DNA from: an uncultured bacterium | GTDB lineage: Bacteria > Electryoneota > B3-LCP | DNA length: 60,704 nucleotides | Reading direction: 5' to 3' | Assembly (NCBI GenBank): GCA_964623265.1 | Contig: CAZUTK010000009.1 | Location: 1-60,704 of the forward strand | Shown: positions 2,676 through 60,704 of the stretch, one piece after another | Position numbering within the stretch: the stretch's first letter is position 1 | How the letters are laid out: each line of letters starts with the position of its first letter | Position numbers and translations under genes: made by a program | Notes under the pieces: generated by a model | What the model saw: the letters and a program-made list of their open reading frames with translations, nothing else | Told to the model about the DNA's origin: nothing | The model's database searches: none

Positions 2676-5600
2676 ATGAAACGCTTGCTCGCGGTTTTAT
2701 CCGCTGTCGTCTTTCTGCTATGTAGCGGGACCTCTCTGCCGGCGCAGGATGGACCCTATTTGCTGGTGCGCGTGACCGTCACACCGGAAGTCAAGTTGAT
2801 CCCTCTACTGGAATTAGGATTGGATATCACTGGAGGGGTCAAGGATCAGTATTTGGAAGTCGTCTGCCATCCGGCGGAACTGGCGCAGATCCGCGCGCTG
2901 GGCTATACCGCCGATGTGCTGATTGAGGATATGGAAAGGTATTACGCGGAACAAGCCCCCGTCAGCGATGATATGGGAGGGTTCCACACCTATTCCGAAA
3001 CCGTGCAGTTGCTCAATGCTGCGCATAACCTCTATCCCAATATCACCACAGCTCCGTTCTCGATCGGGCAGACGATCGAAGGGCGCGAGATGTGGGCGAT
3101 CAAAATCTCCGACAATCCGAATCTGGACGAAGATGAACCGGAGATTTTCTTCAACGGTCTGATTCACGCGCGGGAACCGATCGGACTGGAAATCTGCCTG
3201 GCTCTGATTGACACGCTCTTGCACGGTTACGGGGTGAATCCGCAGATGACCTACTTTGTCAACGAGCGGGAAATCTTCTTCCTGCCGATTTTCAATGTGG
3301 ATGGTTACGTTTACAATGAGACCACCAATCCGACCGGCGGCGGGATGTGGCGTAAAAACCGTCGTTTGAACGCCGGAGGCTCATACGGAGTGGATCTGAA
3401 CCGCAACTTCGGGTTCAACTGGGGTTACAACAACGTGGGTTCTTCACCTACCCCCAGCTCTGAAACCTATCGCGGGACCGGTCCCTTCTCGGAACCGGAG
3501 ACGGAAAACGTGCGGCAATTCTGCAACGACCACTATTTTGCCATTGTGTTGAATTTTCACTCCTACTCGAATTTAATGCTGTATTCGTGGTCAATCCCCG
3601 CTGCGCCGTGGGGTTATACACCGGACAACGCGACCTTCTACTCGATGTCCCAGACGATGAACGCCTGGAACGGCTACGAGTTCGGCACCGCCTGGGAGAT
3701 CCTCTATGAAGTCAACGGAGATGCCAACGACTGGATGTACGGCGAGCAGATTGAAAAGCCGAAGTCGCTCGCCTGGGTGTTCGAAGTCCATCCCAGCAGC
3801 TTCTGGCCCTACAGTCAGATTCAGTATCTGATCAATCAGAATATGCAGCCCTGTTTTTACCTGATTGACCAGGCGGCGAACTACATGCCGACTCCGGTGA
3901 ACCTCTCCTACGTCGGCGGGGTGATTGACGACCAGATCGGCGGCAACGGCAACGGCGGTCTGGATCCCGGGGAAACCGCTCAGTTTACCCCGACTCTGCG
4001 CAACGGCGGTTGGGTGACTGGAACCGGCATCTCCGCCACACTGGTCAGCCCGGATCCTTACATCACGATTACAACGAATACGGCGACCTATCCGAACCTG
4101 GATCCTCGGGCTTCCACACCGTCCAGCACACCCTACACCATTGTGGTTTCCAGCGGCTGTCCGCTGGAGCACACGGCGCAATTCGGGTTGATTTGGACCT
4201 GCAATCAGGGCTATTCGGATACGGCTTCCTTCTCGTTGGTCGTCGGCGATCCGATGTATCAACCGATGGGACCGGATGCCTACGGATATATGGCATATGA
4301 CATCTACGATCAAAATGGTCCGGAGTTCAATTGGATCGAAGTGGATCCCGTCGTCGGAGGCCCCGGTTCGCTGATCAATTTCACTCAGGATGATCAGACC
4401 GTGCAGTTGACTTTGCCCTTCACCTTCCGTTACTATGGACAGAATTACACACAGATTTCGGTCTGCACCAACGGCTGGATCGCGATGGGCGTCACCACTA
4501 GCACGGATTACTCTAATTCCGCCATCCCCAACTCTGACGGACCGCCCGCGATGATCGCGCCTTTCTGGGAAGACCTGTCACCGCAACAAGCGGGTCGGGT
4601 GGCTTACCACTACAACGCGGCGCAGCATTACTTCGTCGTGGAATACGACAGCGTGCGGGAATACTCGCCGACCACTGCGCGGGAAACCTTCGAAGTTGTG
4701 CTGTATGATCCGGCGCATTATCCGACTTTGAGCGGCGACGGTCAAATCCTCTTCCAGTATAACCAGACGACGGATCTGACGTCGAACACCGTGGGCATCG
4801 AAAATCAGACGCAGACGATCGGGCTGCAATGTCTGTATAACGGCGATTTGAACAATCATATGGCGTCTTTGCAGCCGGGTCTGGCGATTCTCTTCTCGAC
4901 GCCCACCAGCGCAGCGAATCTTGATATCACTCTGACGCCCGTCAATCCTCCGATTCAAATTCCCGCGACGGGCGGAAGCTTCAACTTCAACGCTTCGGTG
5001 GCGAACAACGGGACGAGTCCGGCGACGTTCGATGTCTGGATTATGACGCAGCTCCCCAGCGGCACATGGTACGGTCCGGTGTTGGGACCGGTGAATTTGA
5101 CGTTGTCAGGCGGCGTCTCCATCACCCGTCTACGCACTCAGGCGGTGCCGGCCTCAGCCCCCGCCGGAACGTACGTATATCGCGGATATGTGGGCACCTA
5201 TTCGTCGGTGAAAGTTGACAGCAGCAGCTTCAACTTTACGAAGTCGGCGACGGGCGTGGGCGCGACCTTCAGTGAATGGAGCAACAGCGGCGAATCATTC
5301 GCTTCCTGGTTCACAGAAGATGAAGATGCTCTTCCGGATCAGGTGATACTGTCGCAGAATTATCCCAATCCCTTCAACCCACTTACAACCATCCGCTATG
5401 GTCTGCCTCAAGCCGCGTTTGTTAGCCTGAAGATCTACGATCTGCAGGGCAGAGAAGTAGCGGTGCTGAGCGACGGCAATCAGCCTGCGGGCATGCATCA
5501 AGTCACTTGGAATGCTCAGGATCTGGCTTCCGGAGTGTACCTGTATGTCTTGCGCGCCGGGGAATATACCGCGGCGAACAAATGCCTGCTGATTAAGTAG
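2676..5600 (+). CDS. Secreted M14 zinc carboxypeptidase (carboxypeptidase T-like) with Ig-like domains and T9SS C-terminal sorting domain
   Basis: Signal peptide. HARE, RKNR, NRNF, FHSY motifs. C-terminal QNYPNPFNP...IYDLQGREV...LASGVYLY...KCLLIK. Confidence 0.9.
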   Translation: MKRLLAVLSAVVFLLCSGTSLPAQDGPYLLVRVTVTPEVKLIPLLELGLDITGGVKDQYLEVVCHPAELAQIRALGYTADVLIEDMERYYAEQAPVSDDMGGFHTYSETVQLLNAAHNLYPNITTAPFSIGQTIEGREMWAIKISDNPNLDEDEPEIFFNGLIHAREPIGLEICLALIDTLLHGYGVNPQMTYFVNEREIFFLPIFNVDGYVYNETTNPTGGGMWRKNRRLNAGGSYGVDLNRNFGFNWGYNNVGSSPTPSSETYRGTGPFSEPETENVRQFCNDHYFAIVLNFHSYSNLMLYSWSIPAAPWGYTPDNATFYSMSQTMNAWNGYEFGTAWEILYEVNGDANDWMYGEQIEKPKSLAWVFEVHPSSFWPYSQIQYLINQNMQPCFYLIDQAANYMPTPVNLSYVGGVIDDQIGGNGNGGLDPGETAQFTPTLRNGGWVTGTGISATLVSPDPYITITTNTATYPNLDPRASTPSSTPYTIVVSSGCPLEHTAQFGLIWTCNQGYSDTASFSLVVGDPMYQPMGPDAYGYMAYDIYDQNGPEFNWIEVDPVVGGPGSLINFTQDDQTVQLTLPFTFRYYGQNYTQISVCTNGWIAMGVTTSTDYSNSAIPNSDGPPAMIAPFWEDLSPQQAGRVAYHYNAAQHYFVVEYDSVREYSPTTARETFEVVLYDPAHYPTLSGDGQILFQYNQTTDLTSNTVGIENQTQTIGLQCLYNGDLNNHMASLQPGLAILFSTPTSAANLDITLTPVNPPIQIPATGGSFNFNASVANNGTSPATFDVWIMTQLPSGTWYGPVLGPVNLTLSGGVSITRLRTQAVPASAPAGTYVYRGYVGTYSSVKVDSSSFNFTKSATGVGATFSEWSNSGESFASWFTEDEDALPDQVILSQNYPNPFNPLTTIRYGLPQAAFVSLKIYDLQGREVAVLSDGNQPAGMHQVTWNAQDLASGVYLYVLRAGEYTAANKCLLIK

Positions 5601-55054: not shown

Positions 55055-56764
55055 TCAGGCCTTCAAATCCCCGTTCAGCGCTTTCAGACCGATCTTCAAG
55101 GGAATGATCGTCAGCAAGATCCCCAAAGCGATGATCATGATGGTTGCCGAGATCCACTCGGTCAGAGGGAAAATCACGGCGAAGCGCGTGAATTTATAGT
55201 GCAGATAGGTGGGCCAGGCGAAAATAGAGGTGATGAGCACGACGAAGACCAGACTGAGGAAAATGCAGAGAACGCCGCCGGGAGTATTGGCGATCTTCAT
55301 GGGATTGCGCTGGGAAAAGTCCGCGTACAAAGCTCCCAACCCCAGCGACAAAGCCGTCATCGAAAAGCAGACGACGAAAACCGCCAGAAGCGATAGCTGG
55401 ATCAGCGCGGAATGCATATGAAGCGCCAGTCCGCCGATGCCCACCATCGTCCCCGCGAGAAAGAAGAGCGGCAGGAACGACTGCCAGAATTTGGACCAGA
55501 TGAGCGCATCCATCGCTACGGGAGCGGAACGCAAAATCCAGATCGCCTGCCCTTCCAGGCTGATGATCGGAAAAACAAAACGTCCCGCGACCGCCGCCGC
55601 AAAATAACAGGAGAAGCAGAAATTGCCGTAGTAGAGCAGCATCTTCCAGAATTGGGATTCCACATCGAAAAAGCGGTGAATGTTGAGGAAATTCCCGAGA
55701 TAGAGAGCCCAAAACGCCAGCAGGAAAAAGCTCTGACCCCATTGCAGCGGATAGCGTTTGAACTCGAGAAAATCCTTTCTGAACAGACTCAGATAAAGCG
55801 GCGAGATGCCGGGAATCTTCCGCCAGAAAGACGGGTAGAAGAAGGTTCGGCGCCGTTTCCTTTCGGGGGATCGGTCGCCTCCCGCCAGCCAGCTCTGATA
55901 ATACAGGACGCGGCCCATATCCAGCACCAGCAGGACAATCAAAGCGCACAGCCCCAAAAGCGTCAAGATGATCCGTTCCAGATCGGCGTAACGCTCTTCG
56001 AGGATTGTGAAAAAACCTCTCGCAATCAATTTGTGAGGTATCAGGGTGACATTCTGATCCTTGCTCGCTTCGAGAAGCGTGAATAGATAATCAAGCCCTC
56101 TTTTCCCGACACCCCGGCGATTCACGACGATTAGAATGAAAACGAGGATCACCACGCCCGCCGCGAGAAGCCCCCAATACAGCAGTTTCCGGCGCGAGAC
56201 TCCTCCGAACAACCAGCGCAGCAGAACCGCCGCCCCTACTCCGATGGAACCGGAAATCAGCACTAAAGGCAGCAAAAGCCCCGCGAACAGGCTGAAAAGA
56301 GTAATCCAATGAACCTGGAAGAACACGGCGTACGAGAGGATGAACGGAACCGTCAATACGACTAAAGCCCAGGAGCTGTACAGGATGACTTCGAAGTATT
56401 TCGCCGTGAACAGAACCCCCTCCGAGATCGGAAGCGAGAAAAGCAGGCTTAACTCGTCATCGCGGTAGAGCATGGAAAGAGCGGTCAAGGCGGTGGAGAT
56501 CATCAGCAAGATGAAATAGAAAAGAAAGGCGAGTTCGAAGAATCGAGCCATGACCAATTTCCCCAGATCGGGGATGTTCATCAGGTAGGAGAAGATGAAA
56601 AAGTCAAAGCGGTAGATCAGCGCCGCGATAGCCGCCGCCAGAAAAAGTGAGACCATCATGCGGGCGATCTGGCCGGATTTCAAGCCTTTCAGAGCCCCCA
56701 GCCAATCCGCCAGCCGCAGGTTCAGCAAAAGACGCAAAGCATTTAAGTCTTGCTTCACGTTCAT
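55055..56764 (-). CDS. Putative ABC-2-type exporter permease
   Basis: About 12-14 TMs. LLFSLP, FPIISLEG..W.LRSAP. Coupled to the ATPase gene. Confidence 0.8.
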   Translation of the reverse strand: MNVKQDLNALRLLLNLRLADWLGALKGLKSGQIARMMVSLFLAAAIAALIYRFDFFIFSYLMNIPDLGKLVMARFFELAFLFYFILLMISTALTALSMLYRDDELSLLFSLPISEGVLFTAKYFEVILYSSWALVVLTVPFILSYAVFFQVHWITLFSLFAGLLLPLVLISGSIGVGAAVLLRWLFGGVSRRKLLYWGLLAAGVVILVFILIVVNRRGVGKRGLDYLFTLLEASKDQNVTLIPHKLIARGFFTILEERYADLERIILTLLGLCALIVLLVLDMGRVLYYQSWLAGGDRSPERKRRRTFFYPSFWRKIPGISPLYLSLFRKDFLEFKRYPLQWGQSFFLLAFWALYLGNFLNIHRFFDVESQFWKMLLYYGNFCFSCYFAAAVAGRFVFPIISLEGQAIWILRSAPVAMDALIWSKFWQSFLPLFFLAGTMVGIGGLALHMHSALIQLSLLAVFVVCFSMTALSLGLGALYADFSQRNPMKIANTPGGVLCIFLSLVFVVLITSIFAWPTYLHYKFTRFAVIFPLTEWISATIMIIALGILLTIIPLKIGLKALNGDLKA

Positions 56765-57492
56765 GCAATGTCCGGTTGGGATTCGTTTGTGATGCGCAGG
56801 AAGGTCGCTTCCAGGTTGGCGTCCCCGCTCTGACGGATCTCTTCCAGTGTGCCCAATGCCAGCAGTTTGCCGCGATCGATGATTCCCAGTCGGTCGCAGA
56901 GTTCCTGCGCAATGGGAAGAACGTGTGTGGAGAAGAAGACGGTGGCGCCGTTGGAAGCGCGTTCGCGCAGGACGTCTTTGAAGATGCGCGCCGAACGGGG
57001 ATCCAAGCCCACCAGCGGTTCGTCCAAAATGATCAGAGCCGGATCGTGAGCGAGCGCCGCCATGACGGCGATCTTCTGACGAGCGCCGTGCGAATAACTC
57101 TCGATGCGTTCGTCCAGAAGCGAATGCATGCCGAATAGGTTCGTCAGCTCTTCCAATTTTCCGTTCAGCGCCATGAGGGGAACGTTGTAAAGTTTGGCGT
57201 GGAACTCGATGAATTCACGGCCCGACAGACGCTCATAGAGGTAAGGTTGGTCTGGCACATAGCCCATCATCCATTTGGCGCGGCGCGGATTTAAGGCGAT
57301 GTCTATCCCGTCAATCAGCACGCGCCCGTAGGTGGGTTTCAGCAGTCCGGTGATCAGCCGGATCGTGGTGCTTTTTCCCGCTCCGTTCGGGCCCAAAAAT
57401 CCAAAGATTTCGCCCTTGCGGACGTGCAGATTCAAATTATCCACCGCCCGCACTCGAGCGAAATCCTTGATTAAGTTTTCCAATCTGATCAT
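56761..57492 (-). CDS. ABC transporter ATP-binding protein
   Basis: GPNGAGKST, YSHG, LDEP, STH. Confidence 0.93.
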   Translation of the reverse strand: MIRLENLIKDFARVRAVDNLNLHVRKGEIFGFLGPNGAGKSTTIRLITGLLKPTYGRVLIDGIDIALNPRRAKWMMGYVPDQPYLYERLSGREFIEFHAKLYNVPLMALNGKLEELTNLFGMHSLLDERIESYSHGARQKIAVMAALAHDPALIILDEPLVGLDPRSARIFKDVLRERASNGATVFFSTHVLPIAQELCDRLGIIDRGKLLALGTLEEIRQSGDANLEATFLRITNESQPDIA

Positions 57493-57517
57493 AAGCTGCG
57501 AACCGCCGATTTTCCAA

Positions 57518-57546
57518 AATATACCGCCCCGATGACGAAAAGACAA
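57518..57546 (-). promoter_or_regulatory. sigma70-type promoter TTGTCT-17-TATATT
   Basis: Hexamers with a 17-bp spacer upstream of the ABC operon. Confidence 0.65.
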
Positions 57547-57682
57547 GTAAAATGTGCGGTGTTTTGATCGCGGGCGGGCATAGCGGCGGCGGTTCGAGTA
57601 GCGCGCCCTCATTCATCCGGTTATGACCGCAGCGGAATATTCAGCAGGTTCGAGGCAGCATCCTACCACAACTATGCGCTGG

Positions 57683-58507
57683 TTATGGTTTCCATCCTTT
57701 CACAGTGATGCTCTCCACAGCCCCCATAACTTCTTTTGCCTGTTCCGCGGGAATTCCGGCTTCCTGAATTAAGCTCTGAACGGAAGGGTCGTTGGCGAGG
57801 TAGTCCACGGGGAAGACCTTGGATTCCAGAACCATCACTTTGTGAAATCCCGCTTTCCTGATCAAATCGAGATAACGGTCTTTCAACAATGCGCCCGAGA
57901 TGCAGCCGTTGTACGCAGCGACGGATCGTCGAATGAATTCCGGCAGGGGTTTGGTGAGGACGATGTCCGACACCACAAATCTGCCGCCGGATTTCAATAC
58001 TCGGTGCATCTCGCGGAAAACCGCTTCTTTATCGGGGGAGAGATTGATCACGCAATTGGACAGAATTGCGTCCACAGCGGCGTCTGCGACAGGTAAATGT
58101 TCGATTTCACCCAGACGAAATTCGACATTGGTGTAGCCGCCGCGAGCCGCGTTGCGCCGCGCCAAGTCAATCATATCCGCGGTCATATCCACGCCGATGA
58201 CACGGCCCTCTGATCCCACTTCCCGCGCCGCGAGGAAACAATCCAGACCGCCACCCGAACCCAGATCTAGAACAGTATCCCCCGGTTTCAATTCCACCTG
58301 GTTGACCGGACTCCCGCACCCCAATCCGAGATTGGCATCCTCTGGGATGGAACTCAGTTGTTCGTCGCTGTAACCCAACCCTTTGCTGGTCATCTCTGGA
58401 TAATTTCCTCCGCAGCAGCTGCTTGCGGGACCGCAGCAAGAGCTCTTTTCGCGTGCGATCCTGCTGTATCCTTCGCGGACGGTTTTCCTGATGTCTTCTG
58501 AAGTCAT
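57683..58507 (-). CDS. arsM: Arsenite S-adenosylmethionine methyltransferase
   Basis: SCCG..SCCG, NLGLGCG.P, LDLGSGGG.DCF, SNCVINLSPDK, GCISGA. Confidence 0.9.
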   Translation of the reverse strand: MTSEDIRKTVREGYSRIAREKSSCCGPASSCCGGNYPEMTSKGLGYSDEQLSSIPEDANLGLGCGSPVNQVELKPGDTVLDLGSGGGLDCFLAAREVGSEGRVIGVDMTADMIDLARRNAARGGYTNVEFRLGEIEHLPVADAAVDAILSNCVINLSPDKEAVFREMHRVLKSGGRFVVSDIVLTKPLPEFIRRSVAAYNGCISGALLKDRYLDLIRKAGFHKVMVLESKVFPVDYLANDPSVQSLIQEAGIPAEQAKEVMGAVESITVKGWKP

Positions 58508-58528
58508 TTTCCGTTCTCCTCGTCGTCT

Positions 58529-58810
58529 TCAAGGTTTATCCGTTATTTCCTGCATCAATGGTCCGATGAAGTCCTGGACCAAAGTGGACAATTCTTCCGT
58601 CTTGAGCAGAGCGAAACAGCAGATCACCCCTTCCTTTTCGAAGCTGATCAGCGCCAGTTTCGATCCAGGCTGGATTCCGCTCCGCTCCCGCAATTCTTTG
58701 GGCAGAACCATCTGCCCGCGCTCATCCACGCTGAGCACCGCTTCCAGTTTGCAGCAGCTTCTGCCTGAGTCATTCCGCAGGCAGGCATCGGGTTTGAATT
58801 TCAATTTCAT
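58529..58810 (-). CDS. AbrB/SpoVT-fold protein resembling HgcAB-associated protein HgcC
   Basis: CCKLEAVLSVDERGQMVLPKELRE..GI..G.KLALIS......CCF.L.K. RBS AGGA. Confidence 0.75.
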   Translation of the reverse strand: MKLKFKPDACLRNDSGRSCCKLEAVLSVDERGQMVLPKELRERSGIQPGSKLALISFEKEGVICCFALLKTEELSTLVQDFIGPLMQEITDKP

Positions 58811-58828
58811 ATGGATCCTAAATGGATC

Positions 58829-58887
58829 ATTATTCAGAATTATAAGAAATTTCAGAATAATATACAATCAAAAAATCTCTGCAGCAA
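58829..58887 (-). promoter_or_regulatory. Promoter TTGCTG-17-TATATT with overlapping operator-like repeat
   Basis: -35 at 58882-58887, -10 at 58859-58864. ttcagaat occurs twice (58833, 58851) inside the inverted repeat attattc...gaataat. Confidence 0.65.
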
Positions 58888-58934
58888 GCATTTTTTCGAA
58901 TTTTTTCGTTATGTATCATCCCGCCCAAAATCCT

Positions 58935-58963
58935 TTGACTTTGTTCGATGGGTAATATATATT
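58935..58963 (+). promoter_or_regulatory. sigma70-type promoter TTGACT-17-TATATT for valS
   Basis: Hexamers with a 17-bp spacer. Confidence 0.7.
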
Positions 58964-58996
58964 ATAAAGATATAAAAAATCTTCTTCAAGAAAACA

Positions 58997-60704
58997 ATGC
59001 CCGAATTAGCTAAGATCTACGATCCCACACTGGTCGAAGACAAATGGTATCGCTTTTGGGAGGAGAACGACCTCTTTCGAACGACCGCGGGTTCCGATAA
59101 AAAGCCCTATGTGATTATGATGCCGCCGCCCAATATCACCGGCATCCTGCATATGGGGCATGCGCTGCAGGACGCCGTCCAGGACGCTCTGATTCGATAT
59201 CATCGCATGAAAGGCTTCGAAGCGCTCTGGCTGCCGGGCACGGATCACGCGGGGATCGCCACGCAGAATGTAGTGGAACGTGAACTGGCGGCAAGGGGGA
59301 TCCGACGGGAGGAATTGGGGCGCGAAGCGTTTCTGGCGGAAGTCTGGAAATGGAAGGAGAAACACGGTGGCATCATTTCACGGCAAAAGCGTCGGCTGGG
59401 CGATTCCGCGGACTGGCACCGGGAACGCTTCACGATGGACGAAATGCTCTCCCGCGCCGTGGCGGAAGCCTTCGTGCGCCTTTACCAGGACGGCTTGATC
59501 TATCGCGGGGATTATATCGTCAACTGGTGTCCGCGTTGCGGCACCGCCATTTCGGATGAAGAAGTGGATCACCGCGAAACGCAGGGGCATCTCTGGTACA
59601 TCCGCTACGCATTGAAAGGGACGGACGAGTTTCTGACGGTCGCCACGACGAGACCTGAGACGATGCTGGGGGATACCGCTGTCGCTGTTCACCCCGATGA
59701 TCCGAGGTATCGTCATCTGCAGAGCAGGATTGCCATCCTTCCGGTTTTAAATCGGGAAATCCCTGTGATTTTCGACCGCTTTGTGGATCCCGAGTTCGGC
59801 ACTGGGTTGGTCAAAGTAACACCGGCGCACGACCCCAACGACTTCGAAATCGGAAAGCGTCATCAACTCCCGTTCGTCAAGGTCATTGACGAGAGCGGGA
59901 AGATGACCGCGCAAGCCGGACCGGATTTCCAGGGGATGGACCGTTTCGCCTGTCGGGACGCTCTGGTGGAACGGCTGACGCAGCTCGGCTTGCTGGAGAA
60001 AACGGAAGATCATCGCCATGCCGTGGGGCATTGTATGAGGTGTAAGACGGTCATCGAACCGTTTCTCTCACGCCAGTGGTTCGTGAAGATGAAGCCTCTG
60101 GCGCAGCCCGCCGTCGAAGCCGTGAAGTCGGGGCGCATCCGGTTCGTGCCGCCGCGTTGGGAGAAAGTCTATTTATCTTGGTTGGATGAGATCCGCGACT
60201 GGTGCATCTCCCGCCAGCTCTGGTGGGGACACCGCATCCCGGTTTACACCTGCGAAAAGTGCGGCGAGACTCTGGCATCCGCGCAGGCGCCCGAACACTG
60301 CCCTAGCTGCGGCGGTCGCAGGATGACTCAGGATCCGGATGTTTTGGATACCTGGTTTTCTTCCTGGCTCTGGCCGTTTTCCACTCTGGGCTGGCCGGAG
60401 GATACCCCGGCTCTGCGTTATTTTTACCCCACAGATGTGCTGGTTTCCGGGTATGACATCATCTTCTTCTGGATCGCCCGCATGATTATGGCGGGTCTGA
60501 AGTTCACGGGGCGGGAACCGTATCATACGGTTTATATCACAGGAATGGTGAAAGACGAGCAAGGCCGCTGGATGTCCAAATCGCTGGGCAACGGCATAGA
60601 CCCCATCGAAATGATTGACCGCTACGGCGCCGATGCCGTGCGCTATTCGCTGGTTGTCCTGACGACGGAGGGGCAGGACATCAAACTGGCGCCTTCCCGC
60701 TTCG
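58997..60704 (+). CDS. valS: Valine--tRNA ligase (3' partial; absent from the ORF track because it runs off the window)
   Basis: My translation: MPELAKIYDP...PPPNITGILHMGHA...GTDHAGIATQ...VKVTPAHDPND...DWCISRQLWWGHRIP...DVLDTWFSS...WMSKS. Confidence 0.96.
   Translation, partial: MPELAKIYDPTLVEDKWYRFWEENDLFRTTAGSDKKPYVIMMPPPNITGILHMGHALQDAVQDALIRYHRMKGFEALWLPGTDHAGIATQNVVERELAARGIRREELGREAFLAEVWKWKEKHGGIISRQKRRLGDSADWHRERFTMDEMLSRAVAEAFVRLYQDGLIYRGDYIVNWCPRCGTAISDEEVDHRETQGHLWYIRYALKGTDEFLTVATTRPETMLGDTAVAVHPDDPRYRHLQSRIAILPVLNREIPVIFDRFVDPEFGTGLVKVTPAHDPNDFEIGKRHQLPFVKVIDESGKMTAQAGPDFQGMDRFACRDALVERLTQLGLLEKTEDHRHAVGHCMRCKTVIEPFLSRQWFVKMKPLAQPAVEAVKSGRIRFVPPRWEKVYLSWLDEIRDWCISRQLWWGHRIPVYTCEKCGETLASAQAPEHCPSCGGRRMTQDPDVLDTWFSSWLWPFSTLGWPEDTPALRYFYPTDVLVSGYDIIFFWIARMIMAGLKFTGREPYHTVYITGMVKDEQGRWMSKSLGNGIDPIEMIDRYGADAVRYSLVVLTTEGQDIKLAPSRF

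Follow-up and report, generated by a model that had tools for sequence, protein, structure and literature searches.

An HgcC-family protein of the AbrB fold precedes arsM under a conserved array of 9-bp units and is a candidate metalloid-responsive repressor

We describe here the gene pair hgcC-arsM of an uncultured bacterium (GTDB lineage Bacteria; Electryoneota; B3-LCP). The pair lies in a stretch of 60,704 nucleotides (nt), hereafter the window, which is the entire contig C9 (CAZUTK010000009.1) of GenBank assembly GCA_964623265.1 (2.87 Mb, 124 contigs, 95.6% complete). The first gene encodes a small cysteine-rich protein of the family catalogued as 'HgcAB-associated protein HgcC', and the second encodes the arsenite methyltransferase ArsM. 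In related genomes, the same protein with the same cysteines and the same array of 9-bp units in its promoter is followed by either arsM or hgcA-hgcB, and in the phylum of the window it alternates with ArsR in the position before arsM. On balance, HgcC appears to be an autoregulated repressor of hgcC-arsM, which would be released by As(III) or another thiophilic ligand. The features of the locus are as follows.

58529-58810, minus strand: hgcC-family gene, 93 residues, ATG start; AbrB/SpoVT-fold, cysteine-rich protein matching NF040962, TIGR01439, and PF04014.
58508-58528, minus strand: spacer of 21 nt between hgcC and arsM; ribosome-binding site GAGGAG at 58516-58521, 8 nt before the ATG of arsM.
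57683-58507, minus strand: arsM, predicted arsenite S-adenosylmethionine methyltransferase, 274 residues, matching NF008823 and PF13847.
58829-58861, minus strand: candidate operator array of three 9-bp units (TCTGA 58852-58856, degenerate TCTTA 58843-58847, TCTGA 58834-58838).
58859-58887, minus strand: probable promoter, assigned by analogy (-35 TTGCTG 58882-58887, 17-nt spacer, -10 TATATT 58859-58864).

The 93-residue protein matches the NCBIfam model NF040962 (HgcC) with 114.5 bits (E=1.5e-33, cut-off 70), and its residues 19-88 cover all 70 positions of the model (1-70). The AbrB model TIGR01439 (34.5 bits, cut-off 28.3) and PF04014, MazE_antitoxin (30.7 bits, cut-off 24.7), are also matched. 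Judging from these scores, the protein is a member of the HgcC family. PF01022, the ArsR winged helix, gives no match in a Pfam scan at E ≤ 1, in which PF04014 alone is reported. An earlier annotation made from the letters of the window (the first-pass annotation) had described an AbrB-fold open reading frame (ORF) of 93 residues with two vicinal cysteine pairs, CCKLE and ICCF, lying 21 nt upstream of arsM. This description is accurate, the gap being exactly 58508-58528, and the kinship with HgcC and AbrB proteins that it proposed is confirmed by both models. A longer hgcC frame starting from TTG at 58867 was considered and rejected, since its start would fall inside the promoter and the homologues begin near the ATG.

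The cysteines of the window protein are the pairs C19-C20 (in CCKLE) and C64-C65 (in ICCF), and C10. A protein search gave 738 relatives of comparable length. From the 121 that were listed, 31 were hand-picked and aligned, and C20, C64, C65, and the stretch D-E-R-G-x-M-V-L-P-K are invariant among them. The wider set of 79 relatives gives almost the same picture: C20 and C65 are conserved in 79/79 and C64 in 78/79, and each of D29, R31, G32, Q33, M34, P37, K38, and R41 is conserved in 79/79. The window protein carries the three conserved cysteines and the DNA-reading loop as DERGQMVLPK. The N-terminal tail is variable in sequence and rich in cysteine; 78 of the 79 members have two to four cysteines in the 30 residues that precede the core.

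The partner is identified as a member of the ArsM family by NF008823 (345 bits, E=3.2e-103, cut-off 263) and by the S-adenosylmethionine-dependent methyltransferase domain PF13847 (7.2e-40 in a Pfam scan), and arsenite methylation is predicted for it. The sequence has cysteine pairs near the N-terminus and further cysteines in GLGCG, NCVINL, and NGCISG contexts; these are presumably the catalytic cysteines of ArsM. A sequence scan found neither a promoter-like nor a terminator-like site in the gap between hgcC and arsM, and a single hgcC-arsM transcript is thus plausible. The first-pass annotation placed both genes under one promoter; the absence of an internal site agrees with that. The two genes are also close together elsewhere: the two tblastn matches are 70 nt or less apart in 40 of 45 related hgcC-arsM loci.

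The region upstream of hgcC contains a repeated element that is characteristic of the family. We compared 120-nt regions upstream of hgcC at 79 loci with 150 other upstream regions from the same loci as controls (2 of 81 regions, L024 and L069, were too short and were omitted). Two or more copies of TCWGA are present in 63/79 hgcC regions vs 10/150 controls, and the mean number per region is 2.14, as opposed to 0.36 in the controls and 0.23 in shuffled sequences. The 7-mer ATCAGAA/TTCTGAT is found in 51/79 hgcC regions and 5/150 controls. At least two TCWGA sites occur upstream of hgcC with either partner (32/44 arsM-linked and 30/33 hgcA-linked regions). The spacing of the units is strict. 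Neighbouring units are separated by exactly 9 nt in 64 of 104 cases and by a multiple of 9 in 94 of them. The consensus derived from 113 units is WWTCWGAWW, which is itself a small palindrome.

The position of the array relative to the core promoter should also be mentioned. Among the regions with a WTAAATA box of the archaeal type, units stand 10 or 19 nt before the box in 25/28. Where TTGAC[AT] is present (45 regions), most units are found 10-49 nt after the start of this motif and so cover the -10 box and the transcription start. The upstream regions of five relatives in the phylum of the window all have TTGACA or TTGACT, a -10-like TATATT, and units spaced by 9 bp, some of which are of a looser CWG form; in four of them the units follow the -10-like TATATT, whereas the fifth, with TTGACT and TATATT, has a single exact unit together with looser ones at 9-bp spacing. 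A conserved array fixed in this manner with respect to the core promoter supports DNA binding by HgcC.

In the window, two TCWGA units at a spacing of 9 or 18 nt arise in only 1 of 1000 shuffles of the 186-nt spacer upstream of hgcC. The array also forms an imperfect inverted repeat (58829-58861) with 11-nt arms, 10/11 complementary, and an 11-nt spacer. This repeat was rejected as stand-alone evidence, since 126 of 1000 dinucleotide shuffles of the same spacer do as well. Accordingly, the operator proposed in the first-pass annotation is present within 58820-58890 as the unit array of the family, though the inverted repeat itself is unremarkable. The -35 box was missed by a consensus scan because only three of its six bases match. 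A second -10-like sequence, TATAAT, is located at 58839-58844, inside the array.

The whole genome (2.87 Mb) contains six three-unit sites with one mismatch or fewer. Among the five that were checked (the sixth is C55:1466), only the hgcC promoter and a site before a cyclophilin gene are intergenic, the other three lying inside ORFs. Intergenic operator-like sites are therefore few, and the circuit looks local and limited to a single operon. The array was not found before the one tRNA-Cys gene of the genome, nor was a tRNA found near the operator-like site on contig C40. The metalloid regulon envisaged in the first-pass annotation is thus not what the genome suggests: one operon is seen, and the sole other intergenic site checked precedes the cyclophilin gene.

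To see which genes accompany hgcC, species-representative genomes were scanned, and 542 hgcC loci were confirmed. The partner counts below refer to the best 80 of the 542; the loci are ranked by similarity or score and are mutually related, and their genes are crude ORF calls. Within 600 nt and on the same strand, hgcC has arsM as its next gene in 45 loci and hgcA-hgcB in 33. In the remaining two, the contig ends within 130 nt, so arsM or hgcA follows in 78/78 assessable loci. In a second phylum, HgcC is present in 48/301 evenly sampled genomes, and the 30 loci fetched consist of 22 with arsM and 8 with hgcA; both samples come from the same set of species genomes, with overlap between them. 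The neighbourhoods of the homologues are therefore uniform in that one of the two methylation systems stands beside every assessable one (78/78, 30/30 in the second phylum, and 5/5 in the phylum of the window). Of the refuting conditions given in the first-pass annotation, the two open to computation, a lack of any match to the HgcC model and a lack of association with ars or hgc genes, were both checked, and neither result went against its reading. According to the record titles, the hgcA-linked members are mostly from Methanomicrobiales and Methanosarcinaceae, with some from Thermodesulfobacteriota and Nitrospirota, and the arsM-linked members are from Chloroflexota, Thermodesulfobacteriota, Bacillota, Methanoperedens, Aerophobota, Aminicenantes, and Actinomycetota. 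By the same titles, the culturable carriers include Methanospirillum hungatei and a Methanosarcina with hgcC-hgcAB, and a Dethiobacter with hgcC-arsM.

The two partners are not distributed as two separate lineages of HgcC. A tree of 77 rows, which omits 4 of 81 rows with a DDRG variant (L045, L066, L068, and L086), is short and weakly resolved. Nevertheless, it requires at least five partner switches, at least two of which are forced by well-supported branches; shuffled labels give 23.7 switches on average. The need for at least five switches suggests that one family has moved between the two methylation systems.

Several loci are worth describing individually. In three of them (L034, L063, and L073), arsM and hgcAB are found on one strand behind a single hgcC. 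The order is hgcC-arsM-DUF2284-...-hgcA-hgcB in L063 and L073, and hgcC-hgcA-hgcB ... arsM in L034. In L073, arsM and hgcA are separated only by the DUF2284 gene, annotated as 'predicted metal-binding'. A conserved third gene after arsM was not found among 21 chosen ORFs, which include DUF2284, DUF1326, GNAT, C_GCAxxG_C_C, peptidase M48, MetRS, and others. GNAT acetyltransferases, C_GCAxxG_C_C redox proteins, and DUF1326 proteins recur there (L023 6160-6594 and L058 6222-6791; L024 1298-1651 and L025 2750-3103; L063 2085-2786 and L074 6372-6863), none of them throughout the set. The GNAT enzymes may be like the arsinothricin-resistance enzyme ArsN.

The phylum of the window provides the strongest argument that HgcC stands in for ArsR at arsM. 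Of 79 species genomes of the phylum, 6 have HgcC, 50 have arsM, and 7 have hgcA above cut-off. The hgcC gene stands directly before arsM in 6/6 HgcC genomes. None of these six has hgcA above cut-off, and none of the seven hgcA genomes has HgcC. Of the 30 best-scoring arsM loci in the phylum, 6 have HgcC as their upstream neighbour and 14 have an ArsR-family domain (one a weak match of 45 bits); 10 have neither, three of which are at contig ends, and no locus has both. HgcC thus alternates with ArsR in this position, suggesting that it does the job of ArsR at arsM. HgcC was not found before hgcA in any of the five hgcA loci of the phylum that were fetched, one of which has an ArsR-like stretch about 1 kb away. 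In the phylum of the window, then, the family is never found with hgcAB, and the link between arsenic and mercury methylation put forward in the first-pass annotation needs correcting to this extent.

An apparent fusion of ArsR and ArsM in one frame of 369-410 residues is seen in 6/6 loci examined in the phylum (L114, L115, L118, L122, L126, and L133). The ArsR part of all six contains a CxC motif; the start codons are crude calls.

The host genome itself was searched for the genes of both systems. It contains a single hgcC and a single arsM above the NF008823 cut-off. No hgcA was found in this 95.6%-complete genome, the best match to the HgcA model reaching 19.3 bits against a cut-off of 275. 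Three ArsR-type genes are above the PF01022 cut-off, all on contigs other than C9. One of them heads the following operon.

Contig C8, about 3150-5050 (L103 1016-2911), minus strand: arsR (114 residues)-acr3 (396 residues)-arsC (141 residues, thioredoxin type).

The first-pass annotation had stated that hgcAB and arsR are missing from the window. No hgcA and no ArsR-type gene is indeed present on C9; on the scale of the genome, hgcA is again absent, but arsR is present on C8. Since ArsR is retained with acr3-arsC, HgcC would replace it only at arsM and not in the cell as a whole. The proposal that HgcC-like proteins take the place of ArsR is accordingly upheld by the alternation before arsM in the phylum but restricted by the operon on C8. 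From its gene content, the cell keeps ArsR for efflux and reduction and has arsM behind the other small protein. A match to the CdhD domain was rejected as a candidate HgcA, because it belongs to an 803-residue MetH-like protein on contig C61 (L002 382-2793). This protein is composed of homocysteine methyltransferase, pterin-binding, and B12-binding parts and gives the only CdhD match of the genome; it could pass for a relative of HgcA in a screen that uses Pfam alone.

The structure of HgcC was modelled with AlphaFold2 (AF2). The model (predicted local distance difference test, pLDDT, 71.3) shows the expected strands and short helix, followed by a C-terminal helix at residues 71-90. Among proteins of solved structure, HgcC comes closest in sequence to the DNA-binding N-domains of SpoVT (E=0.0013) and AbrB-family proteins. 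The top Foldseek matches are SpoVT, C68, AbrB, and Sso7c4, and they are weak (best E=0.029), no PDB match being obtained at E ≤ 0.001. A homodimer model scored 0.42, while the best control scored 0.00, which is possibly due to the likeness to solved AbrB dimers. The mark used for dimers is reached by 20/30 proteins solved as same-chain pairs and by 1/23 solved as single chains; these counts are approximate here, because a custom alignment was used. The runs have at least 77% of contacts in common, with a partner pLDDT of at least 57. The predicted interface consists of residues 18-36, 46-59, and 63-69, and both cysteine pairs are located in or beside it. The dimer would be of the swapped-hairpin type typical of the AbrB fold.

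Taking these features together, we propose the following mechanism. HgcC dimers would occupy adjacent WWTCWGAWW units across the core promoter of hgcC-arsM, acting as a repressor rather than an activator. Each palindromic unit may take one dimer, and the C-terminal helix (residues 71-90) may bridge neighbouring dimers. A thiophilic ligand, which at this locus would most likely be As(III) or methylarsenite, would be held by the near-invariant C20, C64, and C65 with the aid of C19 and the cysteine-rich N-terminal tail. Its binding would loosen the dimer or the contact with DNA, so that arsM is induced and arsenic methylation is turned on. At arsM, HgcC would then take the role that ArsR has in related genomes, while the ArsR of the cell would remain the regulator of acr3 and arsC. 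The first-pass annotation suggested that HgcC senses As(III) or Hg(II) through its thiols, which would be the role of the conserved cysteines.

Some observations weigh against this mechanism. C19 is a cysteine in 42/46 arsM-linked members but in only 8/33 hgcA-linked members; because of this difference, the sensor site may differ between the two groups, or the difference may reflect ancestry only. In the model, C64 and C65 are in the β-strand 62-70, where adjacent side chains point to opposite faces, which is awkward for one joint metal site. The first 16 residues of the AF2 model are disordered (pLDDT <50), and the overall confidence is moderate. The array in the window is weak, with two exact units, one degenerate unit, and a -35 box matching at three of six bases. 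Fewer than two exact units are found in 16/79 related promoters, though looser CWG units are visible in some of them. A period of 9 bp does not keep step with the turns of the DNA helix, which makes the seating of neighbouring dimers obscure. The relatedness of the loci and their ranking by similarity or score, mentioned above, also lessen the weight of the counts.

The signal is the part of the mechanism for which an alternative deserves the most attention. HgcC may regulate hgcC-arsM through cysteines that respond to neither arsenic nor mercury. They may instead detect thiol oxidation (oxygen or redox state), sulfide or polysulfide, or a metabolite of the methyl cycle, or they may form an iron-sulfur or zinc site; the methylation genes would then respond to the physiological state and not to a metalloid. 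The evidence from operator and promoter is silent on the ligand, and the use of the same cysteines and operator for arsenic and mercury substrates fits a common signal. C64 and C65 in a strand would be just as suited to a disulfide, or to a bridge between subunits, as to a metal site. The loci come, by record title, from taxa such as Methanomicrobiales, Methanoperedens, Syntrophales, and Dehalococcoidia, which we take to be anaerobes. In Pseudodesulfovibrio mercurii ND132, hgcAB are under the control of an ArsR-like regulator that is co-transcribed with them and answers to S-adenosylhomocysteine as well as to arsenic, according to Gionfriddo et al. (preprint, 10.1101/2022.10.17.512643). The response to S-adenosylhomocysteine makes a metabolite signal conceivable and is a further point against As(III) as the ligand. 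On the other hand, the position that HgcC takes before arsM is that of ArsR, which is a known sensor of As(III), and HgcC is a 93-residue AbrB-fold protein without an obvious nucleoside pocket. Moreover, a cysteine pair plus a third cysteine is the type of site found in known As(III) sensors. We therefore regard a signal other than arsenic or mercury as rather unlikely, though it deserves to be kept in mind.

A second alternative is that HgcC is mainly a metallochaperone that passes As(III) or Hg(II) to ArsM or HgcA, with its DNA binding only setting its own level. Its strict adjacency to one of two metal(loid)-methylating enzymes at every assessable locus would be explained in this way, and so would the variable, cysteine-rich N-terminal tail. 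The six ArsR-ArsM fusions of the phylum indicate that a metalloid-binding domain joined to the enzyme is tolerated. However, a pure chaperone would need neither the invariant DNA-reading loop nor an operator that keeps a fixed place in bacterial and archaeal promoters alike. Among longer proteins, where 78 candidates gave 3 matches, none was found in which HgcC is joined to ArsM or HgcA, though this is weak evidence; the three are singletons in which the AbrB part follows an unrelated N-terminal sequence. A role that is mainly that of a chaperone is improbable for these reasons, while a dual role as regulator and chaperone may exist.

The remaining alternative, in which HgcC is an orphan type II antitoxin (PrlF/MazE-like) that lies beside arsM by chance, has in its favour the name of PF04014, the label 'antitoxin PrlF' given to many relatives by JGI (Joint Genome Institute), and the treatment of the hgcA-linked gene as toxin-antitoxin associated by Zhang et al. 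2023 (PMC10349881), but it is contradicted by the gene order, which shows no adjacent toxin (arsM or hgcA downstream in all assessable loci and the divergent valS upstream in the window), and the NCBIfam antitoxin models are far below cut-off (14.2 bits vs 65; 13.1 vs 55.9), so that we consider it highly improbable.

The regulatory interpretation, in which HgcC represses hgcC-arsM, can be compared with known systems. Like the ArsR/SmtB-type regulators, HgcC is a small protein encoded first in the operon directly before arsM, in the same slot in related genomes; both types of regulators are found before arsM and before hgcAB, and the cysteine cluster of HgcC is likely to be the sensor. The fold is different, with a winged helix in ArsR and the AbrB swapped hairpin in HgcC, which lacks PF01022 and resembles ArsR by position only. 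The operator is also different, being a 9-bp-periodic array and not a single dyad.

HgcC shares with the AbrB/SpoVT/MazE/MraZ superfamily the domain models, the nearest solved sequences and folds, and the predicted homodimer, though all matches to solved structures are weak, as given above. It differs in its cysteine-rich N-terminal tail, in the CC pair of its last strand, and in a C-terminal helix that is conserved. MraZ binds short direct repeats spaced by about 10 bp, an operator layout comparable to the HgcC array. We know of no member of the superfamily with a conserved cysteine cluster or a response to metals. ArsD is another small protein of ars operons with vicinal cysteine pairs, which was first described as a weak repressor and later as a chaperone. 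No relation in sequence or fold between ArsD and HgcC was seen, and the partner of ArsD is the ATPase ArsA and not ArsM.

Compared with the members of NF040962 linked to hgcA, the window protein has the same invariant cysteines, DNA-reading loop, and promoter array. The difference is in the partner, which is arsM, without hgcAB, in this genome and in 6/6 genomes of the phylum that have HgcC. At the loci examined here, hgcC is in fact more often paired with arsM than with hgcA (45 vs 33; 22 vs 8). The family name 'HgcAB-associated' thus covers only a part of the range of the family. Zhang et al. 2023 (PMC10349881) describe a gene of the prlF/mazE/abrB type that lies immediately upstream of hgcA, mainly in archaea, and propose it as a regulator of hgcAB tied to a toxin-antitoxin system. 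A paper linking an AbrB-like gene to arsM or describing the operator was not found, the supplementary tables of PMC10349881, which might list such genes, being outside the search. HgcC is a catalogued family, for which the link to arsM and the 9-bp operator were not found described in the literature.

The genes flanking the pair seem to be independent of it. On the upstream side, valS is divergent and lies 186 nt from hgcC. On the other side, ABC-transporter genes begin 190 nt after arsM, and the gap contains promoter-like sites of their own and a terminator-like hairpin. These genes (55055-57492, minus strand) encode an ABC transporter ATPase (drrA-like, 224 bits, below cut-off) and a 569-residue multi-pass permease without an NCBIfam match. 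They are probably a separate unit, because they are not seen after arsM in the related loci examined. A search for sequencing runs that cover 57400-59100 gave DNA runs and no RNA run. Two public DNA runs (X1 and X2, from one study) that contain most of 57400-59100 are labelled as hot springs metagenome, and they may come from the sample from which the window was obtained.

The same protein and the same DNA site serve the arsM and hgcAB systems across genomes. Since the protein, the cysteines, and the 9-bp array are shared, one signal could switch on both arsenic and mercury methylation in anaerobic bacteria and archaea. We tentatively raise the possibility, to which we give less credence than to the repressor itself, that HgcC represents a new class of metal(loid) sensors, in which an AbrB swapped-hairpin repressor is gated by a cysteine cluster and in which one signal, likely arsenite, governs arsM and hgcAB. 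The finding bears on what controls hgcAB, what hgcAB are for, and how arsM is expressed in anaerobes. The name of the HgcC family and the 'antitoxin PrlF' labels appear misleading and call for revision. If the proposal is true, HgcC would be a new class of metalloid sensors and a marker for the environmental switch-on of arsenic or mercury methylation. A family unrelated to ArsR would have reached the same link between arsenic and mercury as that reported for the ArsR-like regulator of P. mercurii, and hgcAB would natively be part of a response to soft metalloids.

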